Part shown: positions 5,302 through 63,577 of the stretch, piece by piece
Position numbering within the stretch: the first letter of the stretch is position 1
How the letters are laid out: each line of letters starts with the position of its first letter
Source of the DNA: Candidatus Omnitrophota bacterium
GTDB taxonomy: Bacteria > Omnitrophota > Gorgyraeia > Zapsychrales > Zapsychraceae
Direction: 5' to 3'
DNA: 64,000 nt
NCBI GenBank assembly: GCA_015233195.1
Contig: JADFYE010000011.1
Location: 4,472 to 68,471 of the forward strand
Translations under genes and position numbers: made by a program
The notes under the pieces: model-generated
Database searches by the model: none
The model's input: the letters and a program-made list of their open reading frames with translations, nothing else
What the model was told of the DNA's origin: nothing

Positions 5302-5727
5302 ATGAGAAAGAGAATTGTAATTTTAATCGTTGGAGCAATGTTTTTAGGCGCAGGGCTTGGCGCAATAGCATCGGCACAAGCAGCAAAAGATATGACTGGA
5401 ACAGAAATGATGATGAAAAAAAGTATGAAGATGGAGCATAAGGGTGAGGGTATGAATAAAATGGGTGGGATGATGATGGAAAGTATGATGAAAAAAAACA
5501 TAATCGCTACTTCTGACGGAGGGGTGATTGTTATGGCGGGTAATAAATTAATGAAATATGATAAAGACCTTAATCTGATTAAAGAAGTTGATATCAAAAT
5601 TGATATGGAAGCTATTAAGAAAGATATGAAAGCAATGATGGAAAATTGTCCGATGATGCAAAAAGAGTCAATGGAAGAAGAAAAGATGGAACACGAGATG
5701 GAAAAAAAGGCAGAAACAGCTAAATAG
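5302..5727 (+). CDS. Exported methionine-rich small protein (24 Met in about 114 mature residues)
   Basis: SD AGGAGG 6 nt upstream. Signal peptide MRKRIVILIVGAMFLGAGLGAIASAQA. MMMKKSMKMEHKGEGMNKMGGMMMESMM and MEHEME clusters. Confidence 0.75.
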   Translation: MRKRIVILIVGAMFLGAGLGAIASAQAAKDMTGTEMMMKKSMKMEHKGEGMNKMGGMMMESMMKKNIIATSDGGVIVMAGNKLMKYDKDLNLIKEVDIKIDMEAIKKDMKAMMENCPMMQKESMEEEKMEHEMEKKAETAK

Positions 5728-5735
5728 TTTAAAAT

Positions 5736-5776
5736 AAATAAGGACAAATCTTGATAAATAAGGTTTGTCCTTATTT
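5736..5776 (+). terminator. Hairpin after the Met-rich gene (13-bp stem AAATAAGGACAAA / TTTGTCCTTATTT)
   Basis: Perfect inverted repeat read directly, 9 nt after the stop. Weak T tract, so an intrinsic-terminator role is inferred. Confidence 0.55.
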
Positions 5777-5846
5777 ATATCGTTGCTAATAAGTAATCCT
5801 CGGGTTAAAATAATTAACTTAATTTATATATTTTAGAGGAAAATAA

Positions 5847-31559: not shown

Positions 31560-34500
31560 ATGTTAAAACGTTTTATTTCGTCGTTGATTTTAATTTCTTT
31601 TACCATTTCGTCAGTATGTCCGTCAGCGTTTGGTCAAATGGTGACCCTTCCTCAACCCGGTACTATGTTAAATCCCACGTCAGCAGTTATGCCGGTAATT
31701 ATGCGGGGCGTGAACATTGACCCGAACAATCCTTTGAAATTCGATTTTATTATGGATAAAGGAACTGATAAAACGGGTGCTGCTAATGTGTCTTTCGAAG
31801 CAGAGTCCAAAAAACTTATTAATTATTTTTTAGCTTCATTAACAGTTCCGCAGGAAGAGATGTGGGTTAACCTTTCTCCGAATGAGCCAGACCGTATTAT
31901 ACCAGCCAATTTTGGTAAGACTGAAATGGGTAGAGATGTTTTAGCTCAGGATTATTTATTAAAACAATTAACTTCGTCATTAATGTATCCTGAAAATGAA
32001 TTGGGCAAAAAATTTTGGGCAAAGATTTATGAACGCGCGCAAAAAGAATTCGGCACGACTGATATTCCAACTGACACATATAATAAGGTATGGATTATTC
32101 CTGAAACCGCCAAGATATACGAACACGCCAATGGTTCGACAGGCTCACCACGTGGAGGCGCGTTTATTGTAAAAACGCACCTTAAAGTAATGATGGAGAA
32201 GGATTATGTTAAAGAGGACCGTTCGCAGGAGCTCCCGGCACGCCCTCGGGACATTTCGTCCTCGGTTGTAAACGGTAAAGAGAATGTTGTGTCTGCGACG
32301 CAAGAGCAGATTTTTAAACAGATCATTATTCCTGAGATTGAGAAAGAAGTTAATGACGGCGCGATATTTGCTAATCTTCGTCAGATCTATAATTCAATGC
32401 TTTTAGCATTATGGTATAAAAAAGCTTTAAAAGATTCATTATTGGGAAAAGCATTTGTTGACCAGAAAAAAACCAGCGGTTTAGAACTTACTGATAAAAA
32501 CGCAAATCAAAAAATCTATGAGCAATATTTAGCCGCCTTTAAAAAAGGCGTGTATGACTATGTCAAAGAAGAATACGACCCTAAAGAACAAAAAGTTATA
32601 AGCCGTAAATATTTTTCAGGCGGGTGGGCTGGTGATAAAACGCGGTTAGCAGTTGAACAAGGCAGTTCTGCAGAACTTAATGAAGCCGTTCAGGTTTTAG
32701 AGCGAGAGCAGCGCACGATCAGAGTTTCTGGTCAAGTATCTCCGGATGGGGCTATGTTGCGTAGTGGACAATTGCCTCTTAGCGCGCTTGCTTCACCCAA
32801 TATTAAATCATATGAAGAACGATTAAAAATAGAAGCAACAAATACAGCACGAATTGAAGCTGATACTTTGTTATTTATGGTAAGGCGATATTTTGATATC
32901 GGCAGTCAAAACCTTCCAGAGTTTATTAACGAAGCAGCACAAAAAATATATTTATCTGGAGTATATATCGATAGAGATCAAAAAGTAGTTGGTAGTGTTT
33001 ATACACCTGTAAATGGAAAAACAATTGTTAAGGGAATAATCTCGCCTTGGCTTTATACCAAAGAATCTTTTAAAACTGGAATTATTGTTGGTTCAAAAGG
33101 AAATAGAGTTGACAGTCCTAAAGAAGTAATGATAGTAGGACCTGAAAAATTTATGTTTACCATTAGAAAGGGACAGGACGGACCATTTAAATTTTTTATG
33201 GGGATGGATAATGGTGAATTTAGAATGCAAGCGCGTACTACAACGGGTGAGACATTAATAGTATCTCCTGAAATTGTTCGCGTACCGAATTCACTGTCTG
33301 AATATTTTAAGGGTAGACATTTTAGGTTTAAACCAGAATTTATGACTTTTACTGATATTAGCTATGGAGTTAAAATTATAAGAAACATTAATGGGTTTTT
33401 GCAAGAAGTTAGCAGTTTAAAGTCTACAGATGGAACTATATTGAAACTGCGTACTTTATTGGAGGGTAATGCTGTAGCTTGTGCTTTAGCTGTAATTGAT
33501 GGTAAAGTAAATGTAATTTATTATGATTTTGATAATACAACATTTAAAGGCATTCAGCAGTATATTGGGGTTAATGATTTTGGACATAGGATTGTTTTTA
33601 GTTTAGATGAGGAGACGGGTGTAGTTACAGCATCGTCGCAAAAGGCTGAATTAAATGTAGGAGACAAAATAGAGTTTAAAGGTATAAAAGACAGTGCTAT
33701 GAATGTTAGCGAAGCTATTAGCATGGCTAAGGGGTTGGTTGGAATTAGGGAAAAAATTTATCCAAACTTTTTAATGATGCAACCACTTTTTGACGGTAAA
33801 GCGATTGCAGGTGAGATTATTACTACTGCAGATCAAACAAGGTATATTTTGATATTAACGCAGGATATTTCTAATGGTATATCAGTTTATTTAGTACCAG
33901 AAAAAGATTTTCCGGGCGATTGGAAAAAAACAACTTCGGATTTGGAAACATGGGAATTAAGAGACATTAGTTTTGCTAAGCCATACTTTAAAGGATCGTT
34001 TCTTATTAAAGAGGGTAAGCTCGACTATAAAGGTGACAGAAAACTTCCATGGTTAAAAGGAGAAGTTGATGATTTTTTAAGTAAAATTCAGAGTTCTAGA
34101 GCTTGGGATGACGTAAGGATATTGAAAGCTTATTTAAATCAGAATGGAAAATCAAAATCAGTTGCTGATTGGGCTAAACAAAAAATGGCTGATGCTCAAG
34201 CTCTTAAGGAATATTTGTTAAGAGATGTTCCTGATTCAAAAGATTTGAGTTACGTTGTTATAAAATATGGTAACGTGGGATTTTTGCGCGCTGTTTATCT
34301 TACTGAGAATTCTAAAGTATCAGGCGCAGAGTATGTGTTTTATGAAAAGCAGGATAATGGAGAGCCTGCTATTTATGTTGAAAAGACTTTTATGCATAAT
34401 ACTTTCTCTCAAACAACTGAATGGAAAATAACTGCTGATGACATTAAAATCCCTCGGTTTAAGGGTTATGTAGCTTCGACAAAAAATAGATTAGTTGAGA

Positions 34501-36002
34501 AAGCTAGTTTGGGCGATATTATTATTGCTGTTTCTGACGTAGAAAATCCCAAACAAAAACAAACCAAGGAAATTCCGGTTTGGGAATTTTTAGTTAAAAA
34601 TGGTTTTGCAGATCAAGTTGCTGGAGATAAAAATCTTATTCGTTTACGTGCTAATATAGCTGAAAATACTTTGAAAGCTAAAATTGAAGAAAAGATTTTT
34701 AAACCAAGCGATGATACAACGGGTAATGCTTTGGATCTTTTTACGTTTGGTATTGTAGGTGATTGGCAAAAAGTCAGAGATAATATTTGGACTGCTGTAG
34801 AAAAGATACAAGCAGAGGAAAGGTTTCTTGATACTGGGATAATTGAAGCCGGCGCTATTTATAGAGGGAAATTGGATTTTGATGTTTTTAGTGATGGAAG
34901 TGTTCAAATAGCTAATGCTAGAAAAACAGTACTGCAAAAAGGGAACCTTGCTCTTACAGATAAACCGCGGGTATATTTGCATTTTAGCCCACCATGGGAA
35001 TATTTAAATGCTGAGGTTTTAAAACGGATTTTTTTAAGCGCTAATAATGTATCATTATTTTATCAAAACGTTAAAGAAAAATTTTCTCAGCTTTATGTTG
35101 ATAATCCCTGGCTTAACGATGTAGGAATTCCTGTTGGTTTTGTAAGAGATTTAAAAGACGGAAGAAATTATCTGGCGTTTATACCTTATAAAGAAAATCC
35201 TGAAGAATATGTTGCTTCGCCTTTGTCAAATGTAATCACAATGTTATGTGTTCCTATTACTGATGGTAATAATCCAAATCTTGCGCCAATTTCTTACACT
35301 GTTGACCAAGAAGGAATAGTTTATAAAACAGAAGTAGAAGCATTTAAGAATAAAGTTCCAAAAAAGGGTTTTAAACCAGCACCTGATATGCAATTTATTT
35401 GGGATGTTGAAGCAGGAGTAACAGTTAAGCAAACTGATTTTATGAAAGAGTTTGGTAAACCCAGGGGATTAGAAATATATCAATGGCTGATAGATCAAAA
35501 ATTTGTAAATGAAAAGGGTCAATTAATTGTTTCAATCGATATAATCAAAAAAGAGTTGGAGGCTGCAAAACATACGGTAAATAGTAAAAAGCAAGAGGCA
35601 GAATCCGGCAAGAAAAAGGAAGAATTAAAACCTCATAAATATTTTCCTATTTCTACGCAAATTTTAGATTTAATTAACGCAGCCAGTGCTTCTTCCGCGC
35701 AAAAATTATTTGGCTTCGAGCCGTATGACGCTGCTTCACCTGCTGCGGATAAGGCGGCTCTGGTTGAGGCTGTTCCACAAGTCGCGCAGCGAGACGGTGG
35801 TATTGATCTTAATGCCGCGAATATAAAGATGGACGTGGATCAGGCAATGCAAGGCGGGTTTAAAATGAACATCGATCCTGCAATGTTGCAGCAAATTCAA
35901 AATGCAAAAGGCTTGCAGTTTAATATTATGCAAGTCCAGCCTAATGTTAGTTTAAGGTTGTTGCTTGGTCTATTAGATGTTAATGATGTTAAAAAAGGTT
36001 AA
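31560..36002 (+). CDS. Very large secreted protein (1480 aa), function unknown
   Basis: SD AGGAG. Signal peptide MLKRFISSLILISFTISSVCPSAFGQ. Uninterrupted ORF with no motif I can assign. The central ~2.5 kb looks more AT-rich than the 5' 1.2 kb. Confidence 0.8.
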   Translation: MLKRFISSLILISFTISSVCPSAFGQMVTLPQPGTMLNPTSAVMPVIMRGVNIDPNNPLKFDFIMDKGTDKTGAANVSFEAESKKLINYFLASLTVPQEEMWVNLSPNEPDRIIPANFGKTEMGRDVLAQDYLLKQLTSSLMYPENELGKKFWAKIYERAQKEFGTTDIPTDTYNKVWIIPETAKIYEHANGSTGSPRGGAFIVKTHLKVMMEKDYVKEDRSQELPARPRDISSSVVNGKENVVSATQEQIFKQIIIPEIEKEVNDGAIFANLRQIYNSMLLALWYKKALKDSLLGKAFVDQKKTSGLELTDKNANQKIYEQYLAAFKKGVYDYVKEEYDPKEQKVISRKYFSGGWAGDKTRLAVEQGSSAELNEAVQVLEREQRTIRVSGQVSPDGAMLRSGQLPLSALASPNIKSYEERLKIEATNTARIEADTLLFMVRRYFDIGSQNLPEFINEAAQKIYLSGVYIDRDQKVVGSVYTPVNGKTIVKGIISPWLYTKESFKTGIIVGSKGNRVDSPKEVMIVGPEKFMFTIRKGQDGPFKFFMGMDNGEFRMQARTTTGETLIVSPEIVRVPNSLSEYFKGRHFRFKPEFMTFTDISYGVKIIRNINGFLQEVSSLKSTDGTILKLRTLLEGNAVACALAVIDGKVNVIYYDFDNTTFKGIQQYIGVNDFGHRIVFSLDEETGVVTASSQKAELNVGDKIEFKGIKDSAMNVSEAISMAKGLVGIREKIYPNFLMMQPLFDGKAIAGEIITTADQTRYILILTQDISNGISVYLVPEKDFPGDWKKTTSDLETWELRDISFAKPYFKGSFLIKEGKLDYKGDRKLPWLKGEVDDFLSKIQSSRAWDDVRILKAYLNQNGKSKSVADWAKQKMADAQALKEYLLRDVPDSKDLSYVVIKYGNVGFLRAVYLTENSKVSGAEYVFYEKQDNGEPAIYVEKTFMHNTFSQTTEWKITADDIKIPRFKGYVASTKNRLVEKASLGDIIIAVSDVENPKQKQTKEIPVWEFLVKNGFADQVAGDKNLIRLRANIAENTLKAKIEEKIFKPSDDTTGNALDLFTFGIVGDWQKVRDNIWTAVEKIQAEERFLDTGIIEAGAIYRGKLDFDVFSDGSVQIANARKTVLQKGNLALTDKPRVYLHFSPPWEYLNAEVLKRIFLSANNVSLFYQNVKEKFSQLYVDNPWLNDVGIPVGFVRDLKDGRNYLAFIPYKENPEEYVASPLSNVITMLCVPITDGNNPNLAPISYTVDQEGIVYKTEVEAFKNKVPKKGFKPAPDMQFIWDVEAGVTVKQTDFMKEFGKPRGLEIYQWLIDQKFVNEKGQLIVSIDIIKKELEAAKHTVNSKKQEAESGKKKEELKPHKYFPISTQILDLINAASASSAQKLFGFEPYDAASPAADKAALVEAVPQVAQRDGGIDLNAANIKMDVDQAMQGGFKMNIDPAMLQQIQNAKGLQFNIMQVQPNVSLRLLLGLLDVNDVKKG

Positions 36003-36011
36003 TTTATAAAC

Positions 36012-36032
36012 GGACAGGTCACAGACCTGTCC
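36012..36032 (+). terminator. Hairpin terminator (GGACAGGTC-ACA-GACCTGTCC)
   Basis: Perfect 9-bp stem 10 nt after the stop; A/T-rich tract follows. Confidence 0.65.
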
Positions 36033-36202
36033 CTACGAAAAAAATAATTGTTTTTGAGATTTAGAATTTTTATTTAACGGTGGTTGTGGATTTTCACGAT
36101 CACCGTTTTTTAATTTTTATAACAAATTCTTTATTTATCCTCTTTTTTCTATATAATAAAAATATATTAAAATATTCTATGTTGTTTAATGGGGGAGAAG
36201 TT

Positions 36203-37075
36203 ATGGTAAATAATAAAATGAATAATTCTTCTGGAAAAATTCTGGTTATATTTTTGGTGATAGCTGCAGTTTTATTGACGTCATTGGCTGCTATTTCTAC
36301 TTTTTTATTCCAGAAAGAAATTGAAAAGCGTAAAAGTGCTGAAGATAAATTGAATGTATATTTGAAAGAACGGGTTACCGTTACAAAAGATCTGGAGCAA
36401 TTACAAAAAGAGAAACAAATCTTACAGGAAAAAAATAAAGAAGCTGATGATAAAATCAATGGATTGTTAGACGAGCTGGAATTGCAGGAAGGCTTGAGAA
36501 AAGAGATTAAAAATGAGAGCGCCTCGTTACGAGAACAGTTAGACTCTGCTAAAAAAGATACTGAAAAATTAAATGCTAAAGTGGCTGAATTGCAGGAAGC
36601 CGCGCAAAAATATGAAGAAATAAAAAATACTTTTGAGACGCAGAAAAAACAAAAGGAAGATTTGGACGCTCAATTAAAGACCACAAATGAACATACCCGC
36701 AAGCTGGAAAGCACGTTGGTGGAATTAGAAAGAAAAATTTTGGAATATGACCCGAATTTTAAGCCTTCAACTGGTGAGGTTGCAAAGATCGCCAAAGGCG
36801 CAGAACAGATTGCTTTAGATACTATAGTCGTTGCTCCGCAAACTATTCCAGAAGGACGGGTGTTGGCGGTTGATACTGACGCGGAATTTCTGATCTTAAA
36901 TTTAGGGGAAAAAGATGGAGTAAAAGCTGGTACGATTATGTCAGTGTACCGCGGCAAAGATTATTTGGGTGATGTAAAGATAACCCGAATTCAGCCGGAG
37001 ATGTCTGCCGCTGATTTTATCCCTCCGTTCTCTAGTAAATTGGTCCGTAAGAACGATCAGGTGGTCGTGAAATAA
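36203..37075 (+). CDS. Membrane-anchored coiled-coil protein with small C-terminal beta-rich domain, function unknown
   Basis: Start set at ATG 36203 (SD GGGGGAGAAG 3 nt upstream; the track start at 36080 is a GTG inside AT-rich leader). TM ILVIFLVIAAVLLTSLAAISTFLF, about 170 aa of heptad-rich E/K/Q sequence, then GRVLAVD...LILNLGEKDGVKAG...VYRG. Confidence 0.7.
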   Translation: MVNNKMNNSSGKILVIFLVIAAVLLTSLAAISTFLFQKEIEKRKSAEDKLNVYLKERVTVTKDLEQLQKEKQILQEKNKEADDKINGLLDELELQEGLRKEIKNESASLREQLDSAKKDTEKLNAKVAELQEAAQKYEEIKNTFETQKKQKEDLDAQLKTTNEHTRKLESTLVELERKILEYDPNFKPSTGEVAKIAKGAEQIALDTIVVAPQTIPEGRVLAVDTDAEFLILNLGEKDGVKAGTIMSVYRGKDYLGDVKITRIQPEMSAADFIPPFSSKLVRKNDQVVVK

Positions 37076-38382
37076 TGGATCTTGTTGTTAAAAAAATCTC
37101 ACAAATTAAGGGGCATGTAGTTTGCCCTGCTTCAAAGTCGTATTCTATCCGCGCGTTTATTATTGCGGCTTGCGGAGGTAAGTCTAATATTATTTCCCCG
37201 TCGGATTGTGATGATGCTAAAACTGCATTAAAAACTGCTAAAGCTTTAGGCGCAAAAATAATAAAATTTAATAATGGGTTTAATGTGCAAGGCGATATTT
37301 TGCCGCTTAAACAAAAAACTGTGTGTGTGGATGAGTCAGGCACTGTACTACGTTTTTTATTGCCTTTATTGGCTCTGCATGATCAGCAGGTTATTGTCGA
37401 GGGAAAAGGTTCACTTATTGGACGACCGAATACTTTCTTGATTAAAACTTTGCAGGATATGGGCGTGAATATTAAAGGTTCAGGTGATAAACATAGCGTG
37501 CCGATAAAATTAAATGGCGGGGTAATGTCCGGCGGCAAGATCAAGATAGACGCGAGCGTGAGTTCGCAATTTGTGTCTGCGCTTTTGATAGCTTGTCCGC
37601 AATTAGCAGTTGATACTAGTTTGACTTTGACTGGTGATTTAGTGTCAGGTGATTACATTACCATGACGCTGCAGATGCTGGAACGGGCGGGGATAAAAAT
37701 AAAAATAAATAGGGACAGACGCTATTTATTATCAAAAACAAATAAAATAAATAGCGTCTGTCCCTATTTATTAATACCTGGTCGGCAAAAATATAAGGGT
37801 TTGAAAAATTTTCATGTGCCGTCTGATTATGGATTAGCCGCATTTTTAATGGGTGCTGCAGCTTTAGTTAAGTCTAATGTTAGTTTAAAAGGTTGTTTCG
37901 ACGATAGTTTAGTTCAGGCGGATGGACATATTATTGAATTTTTGGAACGCATGGGCGTAAAAATGGTTCGCACTAAAAAGTCGATCAAAATTAAAGGACC
38001 ATTTGAATTAAAAGGCGGGGATTTTTCTTTAAAAGCCTGCCCTGATCTGGTTCCAATCATGGCAGTGTTAGCATTGTTCGCGAAAGGACGCACTCGGCTT
38101 TATAATATTGCTCATGCAAAAGTAAAAGAGTCAGACCGTATTTCTGATCTAAGAAAAGAATTATTAAAAGTTGGGGCGGACGTCAGGGAATCTAAGGATG
38201 AATTGTTGATTTATCCTCGTGAAGAGTATAAGTCAGGGCAGATACTGGATCCTCACAATGATCATCGTTTAGCTATGGCGTTTTCTATATTGGGTTTGCG
38301 AATCGGATGCACAGTCAAGAATATAGAATGCTCGCATAAATCCTATCCAGGGTTTGTTAAAGATTTTCGTTCAATTTTATAA
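37075..38382 (+). CDS. aroA: 3-phosphoshikimate 1-carboxyvinyltransferase (EPSP synthase) carrying an in-frame palindromic-repeat insertion
   Basis: PASKSYSIRA, ESGTVLRFLLP, SSQFVSALL, KESDRI, NDHRLAMAF. TAATG overlap with the upstream gene. Residues INRDRRYLLSKTNKINSVCPYL are encoded by the repeat at 37704-37772. Confidence 0.9.
   Translation: MDLVVKKISQIKGHVVCPASKSYSIRAFIIAACGGKSNIISPSDCDDAKTALKTAKALGAKIIKFNNGFNVQGDILPLKQKTVCVDESGTVLRFLLPLLALHDQQVIVEGKGSLIGRPNTFLIKTLQDMGVNIKGSGDKHSVPIKLNGGVMSGGKIKIDASVSSQFVSALLIACPQLAVDTSLTLTGDLVSGDYITMTLQMLERAGIKIKINRDRRYLLSKTNKINSVCPYLLIPGRQKYKGLKNFHVPSDYGLAAFLMGAAALVKSNVSLKGCFDDSLVQADGHIIEFLERMGVKMVRTKKSIKIKGPFELKGGDFSLKACPDLVPIMAVLALFAKGRTRLYNIAHAKVKESDRISDLRKELLKVGADVRESKDELLIYPREEYKSGQILDPHNDHRLAMAFSILGLRIGCTVKNIECSHKSYPGFVKDFRSIL
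37704..37772. repeat. Palindromic repeat family C, copy 1 (27-bp perfect arms, 15-nt loop), intragenic in aroA
   Basis: AATAAATAGGGACAGACGCTATTTATT at 37704-37730, exact reverse complement at 37746-37772. The same 24-nt arm occurs at 62741-62798. Confidence 0.9.
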
Positions 38383-38441
38383 TTCATCTTGACAATTTTA
38401 TCAGACGCTATTATCGTATTTGCATTAAATTAAAAACGTAA

Positions 38442-38461
38442 GGGTACGAAATATCGTGCCC
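38442..38461 (+). terminator. Hairpin downstream of aroA (GGGTACGA-AATA-TCGTGCCC)
   Basis: 8-bp stem including one G-U pair. Sequence-related to the terminator after gap. No strong T tract. Confidence 0.45.
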
Positions 38462-38509
38462 CTACAAAATATTTATTCAATATTTAACATTATAATAGAG
38501 GAGGAATAA

Positions 38510-39508
<999 letters not shown>

Positions 39509-39536
39509 TTTAAAATAAAAGTTTAAAAATAAAAAA

Positions 39537-39557
39537 GGGTGCGATAATATCGTGCCC
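39537..39557. terminator. Bidirectional terminator between convergent gap (+) and the GT2 gene (-)
   Basis: GGGTGCGAT-AAT-ATCGTGCCC stem flanked by AAAAAA on the left and TTTTTT on the right. Confidence 0.8.
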
Positions 39558-39561
39558 TTTT

Positions 39562-41205
39562 TTATTTTCTCGTCTTATCCGTTACCCAAAATTCCATATA
39601 TTTTCCGAACATCAAGCGGGTTTGCGCGTCGAGAGCAGGTAGGGCGCTTAATCCTACCAATACAAAAGGTATGGCGAGCCATTCGAAGATGTGACCAAGT
39701 TTTTTTGCCCACTTGTGATCACCTTTTGGTTCAGGAAGCATGGCAATGCTTAATAAAATAGAAATGAATAAAGATATCGAGGACAACTGAAATATAGTTC
39801 GGGTTATGTGCGGTTCGTTGTAATAAAGTACGGAATTGTTATATTGCTGCCCGGCAATAAGCGCGGGAAACCAGCTCATAGTGGTTAAAAGAAAGCCCCA
39901 GGTTGCCCAGGATACGTGGTCTTCCAGCATTTTGAATCCATGCCGGATTTTATTATATACAGAAATATTTGGACTTCTTAAAAATCCCCGGATAAGTATT
40001 GGGAAATTTTCAACCCCATACGCCCAGCGTCGTCTTTGTTTATAAATATTTTTTATTGTGGTTTTCCAGTCTTCTGCCATGGTTGCGTCCATGGATAAAG
40101 TTGCATAGATTGGGATTACCTGATATTTTCCCTCGTAGAATATGTAAGCTTTCCAGAATATTGCTGAGTCGTCGGATATCATGTCTTTTGGCCAATAGCC
40201 TATATCGTGTAAAGCTTTGAAACTCATGCTGTGGCTGGAAAAGGTAACTAATTTTTCCGGGTTGGTAGATTCAATTAATTGGAAGAATGAAGAACCGGTT
40301 TCCATAACCCGCGAGAATGCTGGTACGGTCCAGATATTATTGTGGTATACCGGTATAGGTTGATAACTGGCATGTTCCCGGTCGGGTGTGGTCATGAACG
40401 CGTAAGTTAAGGCGGAAAAATATTTTTTGTCTACTACAGTATCAGCGTCGAAACAGGAAACTATGACATTGCTAAGATCTATATTGTTGTCTTGAAAATA
40501 TTGGGTGCAATGCGTGGCAGCGTAAGAAGCATTAGCGCCTTTTACTCTAGCTTCTCCAGGAAGGTTTGACGGGTGTATAACAACTAAAAAATCCAAAAAC
40601 ATATTTTTAAATTCTTTTTGTAATTTTTCCGCGGCTTTTTTTGTGGTCGCAGGCGCGCGTTCTTCAATGGCTAATGTGACTAATATTTGCTTGCAGGAGA
40701 TTTCCTGCTCGATTAGAGATATTATTCCTGGACGTAGTATTTCCTCATCTTCTTTTGCTGCAGGTATTATAACTAAATGGATCAGGTCATTTGATATAGG
40801 AGGTAATGCCGGACAACGTAATAGTTTTTTCAGGTTACTATGATGTATTCCGCTGGATATAAGTTTATCAAGGGAGCGCGACCCTGACTCGTTTTTTAAT
40901 GTAGTGTTTAGGTGTAATTCGTCGATCTCTTTAATTCGATTCAGCCAAGGGGTTTTACTTTCCACGTTGAAGCGTAAATAAGATAAGGTGAGAAGTATAG
41001 TCATATATAGCAAGCGGATGAACCAGAAAAATATCAGGGCTATGGCTATGATCGAAGCCATTAAAGGCGCGGTGAAAGATAGTATGGTGATTGATAATAA
41101 TATTGTCCAACTGACAATCCCGGGTAATTTTTCGAGAAATATTTGTAAACGTTTTTCGTTTTGGGGGATGTCGGTTTTAGAATATATGAATTTGTGGTTT
41201 GGCAT
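39562..41205 (-). CDS. Membrane-embedded processive family-2 glycosyltransferase (cellulose-synthase-like)
   Basis: N- and C-terminal TM clusters flank a GT-A domain with FDADTVVD (DxD) and QRRRWAYG (QxxRW). Confidence 0.8.
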   Translation of the reverse strand: MPNHKFIYSKTDIPQNEKRLQIFLEKLPGIVSWTILLSITILSFTAPLMASIIAIALIFFWFIRLLYMTILLTLSYLRFNVESKTPWLNRIKEIDELHLNTTLKNESGSRSLDKLISSGIHHSNLKKLLRCPALPPISNDLIHLVIIPAAKEDEEILRPGIISLIEQEISCKQILVTLAIEERAPATTKKAAEKLQKEFKNMFLDFLVVIHPSNLPGEARVKGANASYAATHCTQYFQDNNIDLSNVIVSCFDADTVVDKKYFSALTYAFMTTPDREHASYQPIPVYHNNIWTVPAFSRVMETGSSFFQLIESTNPEKLVTFSSHSMSFKALHDIGYWPKDMISDDSAIFWKAYIFYEGKYQVIPIYATLSMDATMAEDWKTTIKNIYKQRRRWAYGVENFPILIRGFLRSPNISVYNKIRHGFKMLEDHVSWATWGFLLTTMSWFPALIAGQQYNNSVLYYNEPHITRTIFQLSSISLFISILLSIAMLPEPKGDHKWAKKLGHIFEWLAIPFVLVGLSALPALDAQTRLMFGKYMEFWVTDKTRK

Positions 41206-59390: not shown

Positions 59391-59957
59391 ATGGAAAATA
59401 GACCGTTGACTACAGGGGAGATGGCAGAACATTGCCATGTAACTTATCGTACTGTTTTGAAATGGATAGAGGACGGTAAATTAAAAGCTTACCGTACTCC
59501 GGGAAAACACAGCCGAGTGTACGCCGAGGAGTTCGTTAGGTTTTTGCGGGATTATAAAATGCCGATTCCTAATGAATTTAAGGCTTTGGCAGCGGTTAAA
59601 AGGATATTGGTAGTTGATGACGATAAGAATATTACCCGGTCGCTGCAGCGTTTGTTGAAGGGAGCCGGATATAGTGATATTGAATTAGCGTTTGATGGTT
59701 TTGAGGCGGGAAGGAAATTTTTTGAGTTCCAGCCTCATTTAGTTATAGTAGATATTCGTATGCCGGGGATCGATGGATTTCAAGTTGTTGAACATATTTT
59801 GAAATCTCCTCATGGAAAGCAAGTAAAGATAATCGCAATATCCGCGTTTTTTGAAGCAGAAAAGAAAAAATATTTGATCCAGCAAGGTGTAAGTTTTTGT
59901 TTGGATAAACCGTTTGATCCAAAAGAATTGATAGTAAAAATAAAAGAGATAATATGA
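59391..59957 (+). CDS. Excisionase/MerR-type HTH fused N-terminally to a receiver domain
   Basis: LTTGEMAEHCHVTYRTVLKWIEDGKLKAYRTPGKHSRV (excisionase-family HTH) then ILVVDDDKN, VIVDIRMPGIDG, AISAF, LDKPF. Confidence 0.85.
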   Translation: MENRPLTTGEMAEHCHVTYRTVLKWIEDGKLKAYRTPGKHSRVYAEEFVRFLRDYKMPIPNEFKALAAVKRILVVDDDKNITRSLQRLLKGAGYSDIELAFDGFEAGRKFFEFQPHLVIVDIRMPGIDGFQVVEHILKSPHGKQVKIIAISAFFEAEKKKYLIQQGVSFCLDKPFDPKELIVKIKEII

Positions 59958-62746
59958 TCTTTGGATCGCTGTCTCGTAGATTAATATTTTTTATTTTAGC
60001 ATTTTGGGGTCTTAGCATATTTTGTGTAAGCGCTAATGCTGAATATATTGATGATGATGAGGTTGATGCTTCCTCATGTTATCGTATCGGTATTGTTACA
60101 GAGCAGGAAGATATTGATGCGTCAGAACAATGGATGCCGGTTGTAGATTACCTTAATACCAATATTAAAGATCAATGTTTTGCTATCCGCTATTTTAAGC
60201 CTTCTTACAGTTTATCTGCCATAAAAGCCAAAGAAGCTGATTTTTTATTTATGAGTCCAGTAGTCTACTCAGAATTAGAACATCACGTTTTGATAGACAC
60301 CTATTTGAGTATGGAACGTTTACAGGGCGGCATGTATTATTCGCGCAGCGGCGCCACTGTTTTCACTCGTCCGGAACAAAAAGATATTAATGTTTTTAAA
60401 GATTTGAAACATAAAAAAGTAATTGTCTTTAAATCTGAGGATATGCGGGGTGAGTTGGCTTTTGAGCGGGAGTTAGTAAAACTTCATGTTGATCCTAAAA
60501 AAGCATTTAAAAAATATATTTTGACTGAGAATAAAAAAGATATTCTATCTTCAGTTTTACGCAAAGAATATGACGCGGGAGTTTTGGCTACCGGAGATTT
60601 GGAAGATCTGGTGGCTAAAGGGGCTTGTTCTTGGAAGGATTTAAAAATAATCGAACCATATAAAGATTTTCAGATGAAAATGTTTTATGGGGTATCGTTC
60701 CGTTATAGCACTGATCTTTACGCTGATTGGATTTTTGTTTCTATTCGAAATATTCAGTCTCAAATAGTCAGGGATGTGGTTGGGGCGTTATTAAAGATGC
60801 CACCGCATAAGGCTGGTTTTGGCGAAGTTTGGCGTCCAGCATACGATTATCATGATGTTCATGACGCGCTTTGGGACCTAAAACGTGGTAGTCATAATTT
60901 GTGGCATATTCAGAATTCTTTGGCTCGGCTTTGGAGTTCTTATGGATGGTTGATTGTTTTGATATTGTTTATATTTGTGTCAAGCTTGATTTTGGCTATA
61001 TATTTATTAATCAATAATTTCTTATTAAGAAAATCAAAATCGGAATTATCCTACCGGGTATTTTCACAAAAAGAGATTGAAGCCGGGGTTCAGGAGACGG
61101 AAGCCAGGATTGAAGCCATATTGAATGCTATACCTTACGCGGTGATAGGGTTTGAGAATGACACTATAATTTTTGTGAATGGGGCGGTAAAAAAAATCTT
61201 TGGCTGGGATCCGGAAAATTTATTGGGTAAGACTGCTGAAATGCTTTATTCGGGTGAGCATTATATTAATTTAATAAAAGAGATATATTTATCGTTTAAA
61301 AAAGATCAAGTGCTTTGTAAAGAAATAAGTGCTCAAAGAAAAAACGGGGAACACTTTGATTGTTTAGTAAATATTGCGCAGACCAAAACTGTGGGAATTG
61401 ACCATCGCTTTGTCGGGGTGTTTATCGATGTTTCAAATCAGTATCAACAGGAAGAATTGTTAAAGAAACTTTCCAAAGCTGTTGAGCAAAATCCGGTCGG
61501 CGTGTTGATTGTTTCTTATCTTGGCAAGGTCGAATATGTGAATGACAGTTTTGCGCATATAACTGGACTGGAACATTCGCATATTATGAGTTCGTCTGCG
61601 CATAAAATTCTTAGTGAATTATTTTTATATAGTGAAAGTAAAGATTTATGGAATTCTATAGTGACTGCGCAGCTTACCCAAAAAGAATTTTTGACTCAGC
61701 GTAAGAATGGTGAGCAATACTGGGCGGCATTAACGGTTTCTTTGCTTAAAAATTTGGAAGGATCAGTAAGTTATATTGTGTTTAATTGGGATGATATTTC
61801 TGAACGTAAAAAAGCTGAAGATCAGCTTCGTAAAAGTCAGCAGGAAGTAGAACGGGTCAATGCCAGCCTGCTGGATAATGAAAAAGCTTTAAAGACTATG
61901 ATCCAGGATCTGGAATCAACACATAATCAGTTAAAAACTATGCAGACGCAGTTGATTCAGACTGAAAAACTTTCGTCGATCGGGCAATTAGCCGCAGGTA
62001 TAGCGCATGAAATTAATAATCCGATTGCTTTTATTAATAGCAACATGGACGCGTTGGAAAGATATTTAGGAAGTATAAAAAAGATATTTGACGTGTTGCA
62101 CGAGTATGATCGCACTTCTAAAGATGAAGTTGATAAGTTTCATGAAGCGTTTGCAAAAATGAGCAGGATAAAGAATGAGGAAAATATTGATTTTATTTTA
62201 AAAGATATAGATGATGTGATCCATGAATCTAAAGAAGGATTGGAACGGATCAAAAATATTGTAATTGATCTTAAGACTTTCTCGAGGAGAGATGATTCTT
62301 CCCGGGTATTCGCTGACTTGAACCAGATATTAGAAGGAGTTATAAACATTGTCTGGAATGAAATACGATATAAGGCTAAATTGACCAAAAATTTTCAAAA
62401 AATATCATTGGTGAATTGTAATCCTCAGCAGTTGGGTCAGGTATTTATAAATCTTTTAATCAATGCTATTCAGGCAATACCGGAAAAAGGTGAAATAGTT
62501 TTATCAACTTATGAAAAAAATGGGTTTGCAGTAGTTGAAATATCTGATACCGGATCAGGCATACCCGATAATGTGCGGCCATATATTTTTGAGCCTTTTT
62601 TCACTACTAAAAAAGCGGGTGAGAGTACTGGCTTGGGTTTGAGCATAAGTTTAGAAATAATCACTAGGCATCAAGGAAAGATCGACGTGAAAAGTAAAGT
62701 TGGTGAAGGCACTACTTTTTATGTATATTTGCCGCTTTCTAAATAG
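59954..62746 (+). CDS. Sensor histidine kinase with periplasmic PhnD-like solute-binding domain, TM, 2x PAS, HisKA, HATPase_c
   Basis: ATGA overlap. Signal/TM, then YRIGIVTEQ...FLFMSPVVY (phosphonate-binding-protein-like fold), TM WLIVLILFIFVSSLILAIYLLI, PAS x2, H-box GIAHEINNPI, DTGSGI, STGLGL. Confidence 0.88.
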   Translation: MIFGSLSRRLIFFILAFWGLSIFCVSANAEYIDDDEVDASSCYRIGIVTEQEDIDASEQWMPVVDYLNTNIKDQCFAIRYFKPSYSLSAIKAKEADFLFMSPVVYSELEHHVLIDTYLSMERLQGGMYYSRSGATVFTRPEQKDINVFKDLKHKKVIVFKSEDMRGELAFERELVKLHVDPKKAFKKYILTENKKDILSSVLRKEYDAGVLATGDLEDLVAKGACSWKDLKIIEPYKDFQMKMFYGVSFRYSTDLYADWIFVSIRNIQSQIVRDVVGALLKMPPHKAGFGEVWRPAYDYHDVHDALWDLKRGSHNLWHIQNSLARLWSSYGWLIVLILFIFVSSLILAIYLLINNFLLRKSKSELSYRVFSQKEIEAGVQETEARIEAILNAIPYAVIGFENDTIIFVNGAVKKIFGWDPENLLGKTAEMLYSGEHYINLIKEIYLSFKKDQVLCKEISAQRKNGEHFDCLVNIAQTKTVGIDHRFVGVFIDVSNQYQQEELLKKLSKAVEQNPVGVLIVSYLGKVEYVNDSFAHITGLEHSHIMSSSAHKILSELFLYSESKDLWNSIVTAQLTQKEFLTQRKNGEQYWAALTVSLLKNLEGSVSYIVFNWDDISERKKAEDQLRKSQQEVERVNASLLDNEKALKTMIQDLESTHNQLKTMQTQLIQTEKLSSIGQLAAGIAHEINNPIAFINSNMDALERYLGSIKKIFDVLHEYDRTSKDEVDKFHEAFAKMSRIKNEENIDFILKDIDDVIHESKEGLERIKNIVIDLKTFSRRDDSSRVFADLNQILEGVINIVWNEIRYKAKLTKNFQKISLVNCNPQQLGQVFINLLINAIQAIPEKGEIVLSTYEKNGFAVVEISDTGSGIPDNVRPYIFEPFFTTKKAGESTGLGLSISLEIITRHQGKIDVKSKVGEGTTFYVYLPLSK

Positions 62747-62798
62747 GGACAGACGCTATTTATTTGCAAGATACAATAAATAGCGTCTGTCCCTATTT
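62741..62798. repeat. Palindromic repeat family C, copy 2 (24-bp perfect arms, 10-nt loop), overlapping the kinase stop codon
   Basis: AAATAGGGACAGACGCTATTTATT at 62741-62764 and its reverse complement at 62775-62798. The kinase TAG (62744-62746) lies inside the left arm. It probably also acts as the cluster terminator. Confidence 0.88.
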
Positions 62799-62875: not shown

Positions 62876-63577
62876 ATGGCTTTTGCATTGTATTTACAAG
62901 ATTTAGTTGTGTCTTTTATGTTGCCGGATAAAAACACGGGGCTAGACCGGATTTTTGTTGATAATTTGAAGCTTGATGCAGGAGAGAAGCTTTGCATATC
63001 CGGACCTTCTGGCTCAGGTAAAAGTGTATTGCTGAATGTACTGGCTGGAGTAAAAAAACCGAACGCCGGACAAGTGTTGTGGGATGGTCTGGATATTACT
63101 CATTTAAGTATTTTTGAACTGGATAAATGGCGTAAACGTAATATAGGTTTTATTTTTCAAGACCTGCATATTTTATCCGGAATGACAGTTTTGCAGAATG
63201 TTTTATTAATGACGGAACAGAATATTAATTCTGTGAATGCTGAAGCGCTTAATTCCCGGGCTAAAATTTTATTACGCGATATGGGGATTTTTTATTTTGA
63301 CCGTCCGGCAAATACGCTTTCCCGAGGAGAACAGCAGCGGGTCGCTATTGTACGCGCGCTTTTAATGTCTCCTCAAGTTTTGATTGCGGATGATCCTTTT
63401 TCCAGCATGGATAATATGACTACGGTTATGGCTTTAAATATTTTATTAAAGCACGTTAAAGAAACCGGTTCTACTTTGATAATTGCCAGCAGTAATCAGA
63501 TTGTCCATCAACGCATTGATCGTGTAGAAATTATGGAAAAAGGCATGTTGCTCCATGAGCACAGTCTTCATACCTAA
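62876..63577 (+). CDS. ABC transporter ATP-binding protein (LolD/FtsE-like), no adjacent permease
   Basis: Walker A GPSGSGKS, signature LSRGEQQR, Walker B LIADDP. SD GAGGAG. Confidence 0.85.
   Translation: MAFALYLQDLVVSFMLPDKNTGLDRIFVDNLKLDAGEKLCISGPSGSGKSVLLNVLAGVKKPNAGQVLWDGLDITHLSIFELDKWRKRNIGFIFQDLHILSGMTVLQNVLLMTEQNINSVNAEALNSRAKILLRDMGIFYFDRPANTLSRGEQQRVAIVRALLMSPQVLIADDPFSSMDNMTTVMALNILLKHVKETGSTLIIASSNQIVHQRIDRVEIMEKGMLLHEHSLHT

Follow-up and report, generated by a model that had tools for sequence, protein, structure and literature searches.

We analysed a window of 64,000 nt from a Candidatus Omnitrophota bacterium (assembly GCA_015233195.1, contig JADFYE010000011.1, positions 4,472 to 68,471 of the forward strand), in which aroA, the gene for EPSP synthase, carries an in-frame palindrome of 69 nt. 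As far as sequence comparison can tell, this aroA hairpin is real and stems from a lineage-specific insertion, in frame, of a small mobile repeat into a hairpin turn of the enzyme. Our results make it probable that the palindrome is a REPIN-like or MITE-like dimer (MITE, a transposable element of the miniature inverted-repeat kind), in which two copies of a ~21-27-nt terminal inverted repeat (TIR) stand head to head, the TIR being that of an IS200-like Y1 (HUH) transposase of the repetitive extragenic palindrome (REP)-associated type (a 'REPtron/TIRtron') that would mobilise the dimer in trans. We favour this assignment because variants of the repeat unit flank Y1/HUH genes in inverse orientation and because the transposase family matches REP-associated models and TnpA_REP. 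An in-frame selfish palindrome is a known phenomenon; the identity of a 21-nt core across phyla, together with an uncharacterised transposase family, is the more interesting part.

The palindrome in aroA and a second copy in the window

Two perfect inverted arms of 27 nt, 37704-37730 and 37746-37772, enclose a loop of 15 nt inside a full-length EPSP synthase open reading frame (ORF), as found by direct reading and by a repeat search (100% complementarity) and as an earlier reading of this DNA, made from its letters alone (the sequence-only reading), had described. Just one of the three forward frames of the palindrome is open, and aroA is read in that frame, again as claimed. The features concerned, in window coordinates, are these.

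37075..38382, + strand: aroA (EPSP synthase) ORF, 435 aa, host of the insertion; intact by Pfam match and orthologue alignment
37704..37730, + strand: putative left REP/TIR unit of the first dimer, AATAAATAGGGACAGACGCTATTTATT; encodes (K)INRDRRYL(L) and is itself a mini-hairpin, AATAAATAG / GGACAGACG / CTATTTATT
37731..37745, + strand: loop (spacer) of the first dimer, 15 nt, A-rich, ATCAAAAACAAATAA; unlike the spacer of the second copy
37746..37772, - strand: putative right REP/TIR unit of the first dimer, exact reverse complement of the left unit; encodes INSVCPYL(L)
37717..37758, + strand: codons 215-228 of aroA (RRYLLSKTNKINSV), the sole segment of the AlphaFold2 model with pLDDT < 50, between strands 210-212 and 231-234
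62741..62764, + strand: left unit of the second dimer; contains, at 62744-62746, the TAG that ends the histidine-kinase ORF 59954..62746
62765..62774, + strand: spacer of the second dimer, 10 nt, TGCAAGATAC; unrelated to the loop of the first dimer
62775..62798, - strand: right unit of the second dimer, in the 129-nt gap upstream of the ABC-ATPase ORF 62876..63577

The 69-nt palindrome folds as RNA with -39.7 kcal/mol, compared with -10.5 +/- 2.4 in shuffles (z = -12), and as single-stranded DNA (ssDNA) with -26.4 kcal/mol (z = -15). The 23-nt core of the arm has four occurrences in the window, which form two inverted pairs, and none in 100 shuffles, even when three mismatches are permitted. 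The second pair (cores at 62741-62763 and 62776-62798) has 24-nt arms identical to those of the aroA copy. It had been placed outside any protein body; this holds for the right unit, which lies between genes, but not for the left arm, which supplies the last codon (the stop) of a PAS/histidine kinase of 930 aa. When the window was scanned for decayed units, defined by a stem of 6 bp or more around GACAG, only the four known ones turned up. No target-site direct duplication borders either window copy (flanks ATAAAAATAAA / AATACCTGG and CCGCTTTCT / AAAATACTA). An Rfam scan of 37500-38000 gave no known RNA family, only sub-threshold generic hairpin (microRNA-precursor) matches, and a simple terminator scan left the 69-nt palindrome unflagged because its loop and stem exceed the limits of the scanner.

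Insertion into a turn of EPSP synthase

Exactly 15 residues of the window protein, which is the AroA annotated in an Omnitrophota ('Candidatus Omnitrophica') metagenome-assembled genome (MAG; P0001), are lacking in all 22 aligned Omnitrophota orthologues: the window protein reads GIKI-KINRDRRY-LLSKTNKINSVCPYL-LIPG, whereas its closest relative, P0002 (75% identical), reads GIKI-EVKSPREY-VIPG. When the top 120 AroA homologues were searched for two conserved motifs that flank the site, both were found in 101, with a spacing of 41 aa in 98 of these; the window protein alone has 56 aa, and a similar insert is absent from all 120 closest homologues. The earlier estimate of about 15 extra residues is thus borne out, and AroA orthologues without the repeat have no segment of equal length, which makes the insert lineage-specific. 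That the palindrome is a dispersed repeat and not ancestral aroA sequence, as also proposed, agrees with the recurrence of its arms at 62741-62798 around an unrelated loop, with their presence in other genomes and with a comparison at the DNA level, in which the eight codons of the P0002 gene at the site (GAG GTA AAA AGT CCG CGG GAA TAT) are unrelated to the arm.

The palindrome was not simply added with its whole 69 nt. Twenty-three codons now replace 8 ancestral ones, and the net gain of 45 nt falls short of the dimer, which measures 57 nt (the TAGGG...CCCTA core) to 69 nt (the full palindrome); 12-24 nt of ancestral turn-coding sequence was therefore lost or overwritten, and we infer, as a notable point, that at least 12 nt of ancestral aroA would have been lost on insertion. 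The aroA of the closest MAG is too diverged (75% amino acid identity) for an empty-site comparison to fix the insertion boundaries. For the second dimer, the 3' end of the histidine-kinase gene in the closest MAG has an unrelated palindrome, and synteny stops there. A ~57-nt palindrome that is GC-rich and unrelated to the repeat (ACCGTTGGACCACCGCGTCGGTGGACCAC / TGGTCCACCGACGCGGTGGCCCAACGGT) was seen in the relative MAG GCA_015233115.1 (L041 5243-5300; L numbers are our labels for loci) just past the stop of the histidine-kinase orthologue, at the position of the second dimer of the window.

The Pfam domain EPSP_synthase (PF00275) spans the aroA product end to end (residues 5-429, E 3e-83), and all residues found invariant in the orthologue alignment are kept (K21, S22, R26, G89, R117, S163-Q165, D324, K351, R355, R398 and K422), the catalytic ones among them being K21/S22/R26, S163-Q165, D324, K351, R355, R398 and K422. 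An AlphaFold2 model built with the orthologue alignment has a mean pLDDT of 90.4 and superposes on E. coli EPSPS structures with TM scores of 0.87-0.89; its confidence drops below 50 only at residues 215-228, in agreement with the surface loop predicted earlier. The model suggests that the window aroA is functional with an enlarged, probably disordered surface loop, and that the 23 inserted residues would make up a floppy loop at the surface, well away from the active-site cleft of the EPSPS fold.

A repeat unit found in several phyla

Alignment of 45 instances gives a consensus unit A(3-6)-TAGGGACAGACGCTA-T(3-6), also written A(3-6)TAGGGACAGACGCTAT(3-6). Each unit is a small hairpin (AAATAG / GGACAGACG / CTATTT; ssDNA fold of AATAAATAG-GGACAGACG-CTATTTATT -6.1 kcal/mol, z = -14.5), and six of seven unit variants fold as ssDNA hairpins; the stems covary (TAG/CTA, CTAG/CTAG, TAGGGG/CCCCTA) around a constant GACAG loop. 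Every pair is oriented '+ then -' with the GGGACAG side outermost, and inverted pairs occur also in L001, L002, L009-L011, L013-L015, L020 and L021. Spacers are alike within a genome and different between genomes, tracking the composition of the host. The outer end of the unit is ATAG in the window and in most loci and CTAG in L036, while L038 has GGGG upstream. Most copies are intergenic, just downstream of stop codons.

A scan of one genome per species with the 20-mer AATAGGGACAGACGCTATTT returned 11 loci: two Omnitrophota MAGs, one of which, nDJH6bin5, also holds the closest aroA orthologue, itself without the insert; five contigs of a 'Deltaproteobacteria' MAG (54-61% GC); and one locus apiece in Desulfobacterota, Syntrophales, Nitrospirota and Saprospiraceae MAGs. 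A metagenome scan added 13 further repeat loci of 30-67% GC. The similarity between the two window copies, on which the claim of dispersal had rested, is thus genuine. An identical 21-nt core (AAATAGGGACAGACGCTATTT) is present in Omnitrophota, Desulfobacterota, Nitrospirota and Bacteroidota genomes of 30-67% GC. The 21-mer has no matches in viral contigs, and there is therefore no evidence for a phage vector; the core sequence, taken as DNA and RNA on both strands, has no occurrence in the full-text literature.

In loci of different phyla we also saw the outer half of the unit (AAATAGGGAC...) partially duplicated in tandem, in a stuttered pattern that abuts the outer end of the unit (L001 1330-1385; L012 200-280; L020 1425-1445; L028 2920-2945; L038 2400-2445). 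Repeated cleavage or slippage where the element ends may have left these footprints.

Association with Y1 transposase genes

In low-GC contigs the repeat has conserved 'inner' flanks, and these led to a transposase: they are the 3' end of an IS200-like Y1_Tnp gene (L023:1148-1690, - strand); its protein matches Pfam Y1_Tnp and its stop codon is the TAG of the repeat. The family of ~220-aa transposases to which it belongs has 1365 detectable homologues, with Omnitrophota, Nitrospirota, Flavobacteriales and Ratteibacteria among the hosts. The motif or a variant brackets the gene in inverted orientation at 10 of the 10 distinct loci fetched (on a single side where the contig ends), the loci counted being the following.

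L034/35, Saprospiraceae-like: GAGGGACAGACGCTA upstream, TAGCGTCTGTCTCTA at the stop codon
L028-33, Nitrospirae: TAGGGACAGCGACTA on either side
L026, L036 and L037, Omnitrophota: variants of GGGACAGCGAC
L027, Omnitrophota: TAGGGGGACAGCGCCCCTA, plus an upstream dimer
L038, Nitrospirota: variant GGGACAGCGACC
L039, ENA metagenome contig: more diverged variant AATAAGGACGGTAGC
L040, Flavobacteriales: more diverged variant TAGGGTGACAGCGACC

The family shares an HUH motif (NHVHFI) and a catalytic Tyr (RYVExNP), neither of which varies. Its best NCBIfam model is NF047646 REP_Tyr_transpos, with 68-73 bits compared with 20-26 bits for the IS200 model, and its sole match in the PDB is E. coli TnpA_REP (4ER8, E 0.004). 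Searches with tblastn of the repeat loci L001-L024 found no Y1 transposase except on Bacteroidota-like contigs.

Three further observations concern these genes. In many loci the downstream unit's TAG supplies the stop codon of the transposase (L034 3640-3690; L028 3640-3685; L023 1148-1165). The C-terminus of the protein has a conserved AT-hook-like tail, ...GRxxxxxKxGRPKK. Full or fragmentary transposase copies, each with a flanking unit, lie on short low-GC Bacteroidota-like contigs (L018 1-300; L022 1-50; L023 1-125 and 1151-1690; L007 150-310), which suggests that the whole ~0.8-kb transposase unit is multi-copy, in the manner of an insertion sequence (IS), in a Bacteroidota-like host.

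Other features of the window

Three other hairpins of the window were recorded. At 36009-36036 (minus strand), just past the stop of the 1480-aa ORF 31560..36002, a GTAG-tagged hairpin, cGTAG-GGACAGGTC-tgt-GACCTGTCC, has the canonical REP shape of GTAG plus stem-loop and has TAGGGACAG in common with the repeat. Only one copy is present, and the 9-mer match could be due to chance. At 5734-5778, directly after ORF 5302..5727, a hairpin with 19-bp arms (ATAAATAAGGACAAATCTT / AAGGTTTGTCCTTATTTAT) has an outer part, AATAAGGAC, that resembles the REP variant beside the Y1 transposase of L039, and may be a variant of the repeat or an ordinary terminator. At 39526-39568, between gap, a convergent gene that ends at 39508, and ORF 39562..41205 (- strand), a palindrome with 21-bp arms (AAAATAAAAAAGGGTGCGATA / TATCGTGCCCTTTTTTATTTT) has the typical shape of a bidirectional terminator.

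Between aroA and gap the relative MAG has an insert of two genes (L025 11341-11786; their products have 69 aa and 79 aa, and the latter faintly matches HicA toxin), which is missing from the window, where only a 127-nt spacer (38383-38509) is found. GC skew is strongly positive across the window (1-64000; 0.14-0.31 per 4 kb), GC content is 36-39% and almost every long ORF has the + orientation; the window is probably part of the leading strand of one replichore.

Discussion

By analogy to IS200/IS605 elements and to the mechanism proposed for REPINs, a transposase of the family encoded elsewhere in the genome would act in trans on the single-stranded hairpin and excise the dimer, which would then have been inserted into aroA as ssDNA without target duplication, the 12-24 nt of original turn sequence being lost in the same event or later. 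Selection may have kept the resulting allele, which could survive because the element is read in its one open frame, because the length changed by a multiple of three and because the insert is in a surface turn. On this view the palindrome would have no function for AroA; inside the gene it would be neutral at best and possibly costly, and it could lower expression.

Several points weigh against such a dimer mobilised in trans. Copy number looks low, with two dimers in 64 kb, no decayed copies beside them, and one locus in a whole related MAG. The repeat has ATAG or CTAG and not the canonical GTAG tag, and the transposases, at 68-73 bits, stay below the curated NCBIfam cut-off of 80 bits for REP-associated tyrosine transposases (RAYTs). 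No Y1 transposase gene lies within the 64-kb window by tblastn, and Saprospiraceae-like contigs were the only ones in which the cognate transposase of the exact 'ACGC' variant was seen. Finally, pure transposition would add 57-69 nt and not 45, so that an accompanying deletion must be assumed.

The explanation that survives best beside this one, though we think it unlikely, is that the unit is a module useful to the host, either a bidirectional intrinsic terminator or a site bound by a conserved host protein, which spread by recombination or selection and whose association with Y1 genes is secondary. As RNA the dimer is a 27-bp hairpin with a GC-rich stem core, preceded by an A-tract and followed by a U-rich one, and is thus shaped like a (bidirectional) terminator; this shape suits the intergenic copies placed right after stop codons, of which there are many (window 62741, L001, L013, L016, L019, L020, L024), and the ordinary terminator-like hairpins of the window at 5734-5778 and 39526-39568 are similar in design. 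An identical 21-mer in genomes of 30-67% GC from several phyla would, however, be unexpected for terminators, which have no need of a conserved asymmetric loop either; inverted units flank all 10 transposase genes, and a terminator within aroA would be harmful rather than useful.

Less probable still is a role of the hairpin as a cis-regulatory RNA that was recruited in aroA (an RNase III site, a translation pause or an attenuator) and kept by selection. A perfect 27-bp duplex of -39.7 kcal/mol is long enough to be a substrate for a double-strand RNase, and both arms are free of mutations. Yet the intergenic copy and copies from other phyla have exactly the same arms, whose perfection therefore reflects the element and not aroA; moreover, no such insert is present in any of the 120 closest AroA homologues.

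The sequence-only reading had likened the palindrome to the Rickettsia palindromic elements (RPEs), and we regard membership in an RPE family, or a direct analogue of the same origin, as very improbable. In common with RPEs are the in-frame insertion in a housekeeping gene, the palindromic structure and the predicted surface location, and the reverse strand of the unit contains CGTC, the tag of a group of REPs in which PMC3733652 includes RPE-4 and RPE-6. Here, by contrast, CGTC is in the loop and not at the end of the unit and is missing from sister variants (GGGACAGCGAC), and the host is an omnitrophote, not Rickettsia. RPEs, as described in PMC10969869 and PMC3733652, are ~100-150 bp long and have no dedicated transposase, whereas the element here is 57-69 nt and its unit flanks Y1 genes; CGTC-tagged units are also set apart by their description, with 8-9-bp stems and 4-5-nt loops as against a unit of 21-27 nt with a 9-nt loop. 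The likeness is therefore one of analogy, and the element belongs with the REP/REPIN-type repeats that flank IS200-like Y1 genes. An assembly or amplification artefact, either a fold-back chimera or a mis-join inside aroA, is just as improbable: fold-back chimeras can produce perfect palindromes, but would copy aroA sequence and not a foreign repeat, whereas the arms match the repeat consensus at a second site and at 24 other public loci, the frame is preserved and the flanking aroA is collinear with its orthologues.

Returning to the head-to-head dimer, we compared it with described systems. REPINs consist of conserved inverted REPs with a less conserved spacer (Bertels & Rainey 2011, PMC3116915). 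The present repeat resembles the REPIN/REP-RAYT systems (PMC3116915; Nunvar 2010, PMC2817692; 4ER8) in that a short palindromic unit, paired in inverse orientation around a less conserved spacer, makes a long hairpin, in that units inversely flank an HUH/Y1 gene whose best model and structure matches are RAYTs, and in the lack of a target-site duplication. It differs in having ATAG or CTAG where those have GTAG, in a transposase of ~220 aa with a C-terminal GRPKK (AT-hook-like) tail that scores below the curated RAYT cut-off, in its apparently low copy number and in that one copy is intragenic.

A closer match than REP/REPIN-RAYT, by the consensus quoted in Di Nocera et al. 2013 (PMC3733652), is the TIRYT/'TIRtron' class of Y1 transposases, whose flanking TIRs are there said to share GGGGWSAS and to form moderately abundant families of dimers. 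Common to both are a Y1 gene flanked by TIRs at a fixed short distance and TIRs that show partial self-complementarity and are found as dimers at other sites of the genome as well. The (A/G)GGGACAG of our unit fits the quoted consensus, exactly in L027 and L038 (GGGGACAG) and at 7 of 8 positions in the window, with AGGGACAG elsewhere. The present family differs in its hosts, which are uncultivated phyla (Omnitrophota, Nitrospirota and others), and in that the downstream TIR supplies the transposase stop codon in many loci.

IS200/IS605 elements (IS608, ISDra2), the model for the mechanism suggested above, likewise combine an HUH/Y1 enzyme with hairpin-containing ends and no target duplication, but their ends are not inverted repeats of each other, whereas here we find TIR-like ends and short non-autonomous dimers. 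Other candidates were set aside: a classical DDE-type MITE, given inverted repeats without target-site duplication at both window copies, and integron attC-like sites, CRISPR repeats, Tn3-type inverted repeats, uptake sequences and tyrosine-recombinase core sites, all of which misfit the asymmetric loop, the flanking of Y1 genes and the spread across phyla.

The sequence-only reading took in-frame palindromes to be known from very few lineages, a view at odds with the intragenic in-frame REP dimers encoding 20-30 aa that Di Nocera 2013 (PMC3733652) reports from several species. As in those intragenic REPs and in RPEs (PMC3733652, PMC10969869), a palindromic dimer here adds ~20-30 residues in frame at a permissive site of a housekeeping enzyme; it is of another sequence family and host, its link to a transposase is explicit, and it replaced part of the loop (23 codons for 8). 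With this precedent in the REPs and RPEs of other bacteria, the aroA case is a curiosity, an essential enzyme that has absorbed 23 codons of apparently selfish DNA in a hairpin turn.

We tentatively suggest, at somewhat less than even chances, that the repeats belong to a horizontally mobile RAYT/REPIN-type lineage, as indicated by the base-for-base identity of the 21-nt core across four phyla, by spacers that drift to the composition of the host and by the in-frame colonisation of an essential gene. RAYTs are mostly single-copy and vertically inherited (PMC5581495); the identical core across phyla and the multi-copy transposase fragments (L018, L022, L023) therefore point instead to IS-like horizontal spread. 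If true, such a lineage would contradict the view of REPIN-RAYT systems as essentially vertical, lineage-specific residents, and would provide an ssDNA transposase of broad host range whose substrate is a defined hairpin of 21 nt.

Because hairpins of this kind supply stop codons and extra residues in annotated proteins, annotators should recognise them. The wider value of the finding lies in an exact 21-nt hairpin unit tied to a widespread, uncharacterised family of ~220-aa Y1 transposases of uncultivated phyla; the repeat family suggests spread between phyla and bears on how REPIN-like elements persist.

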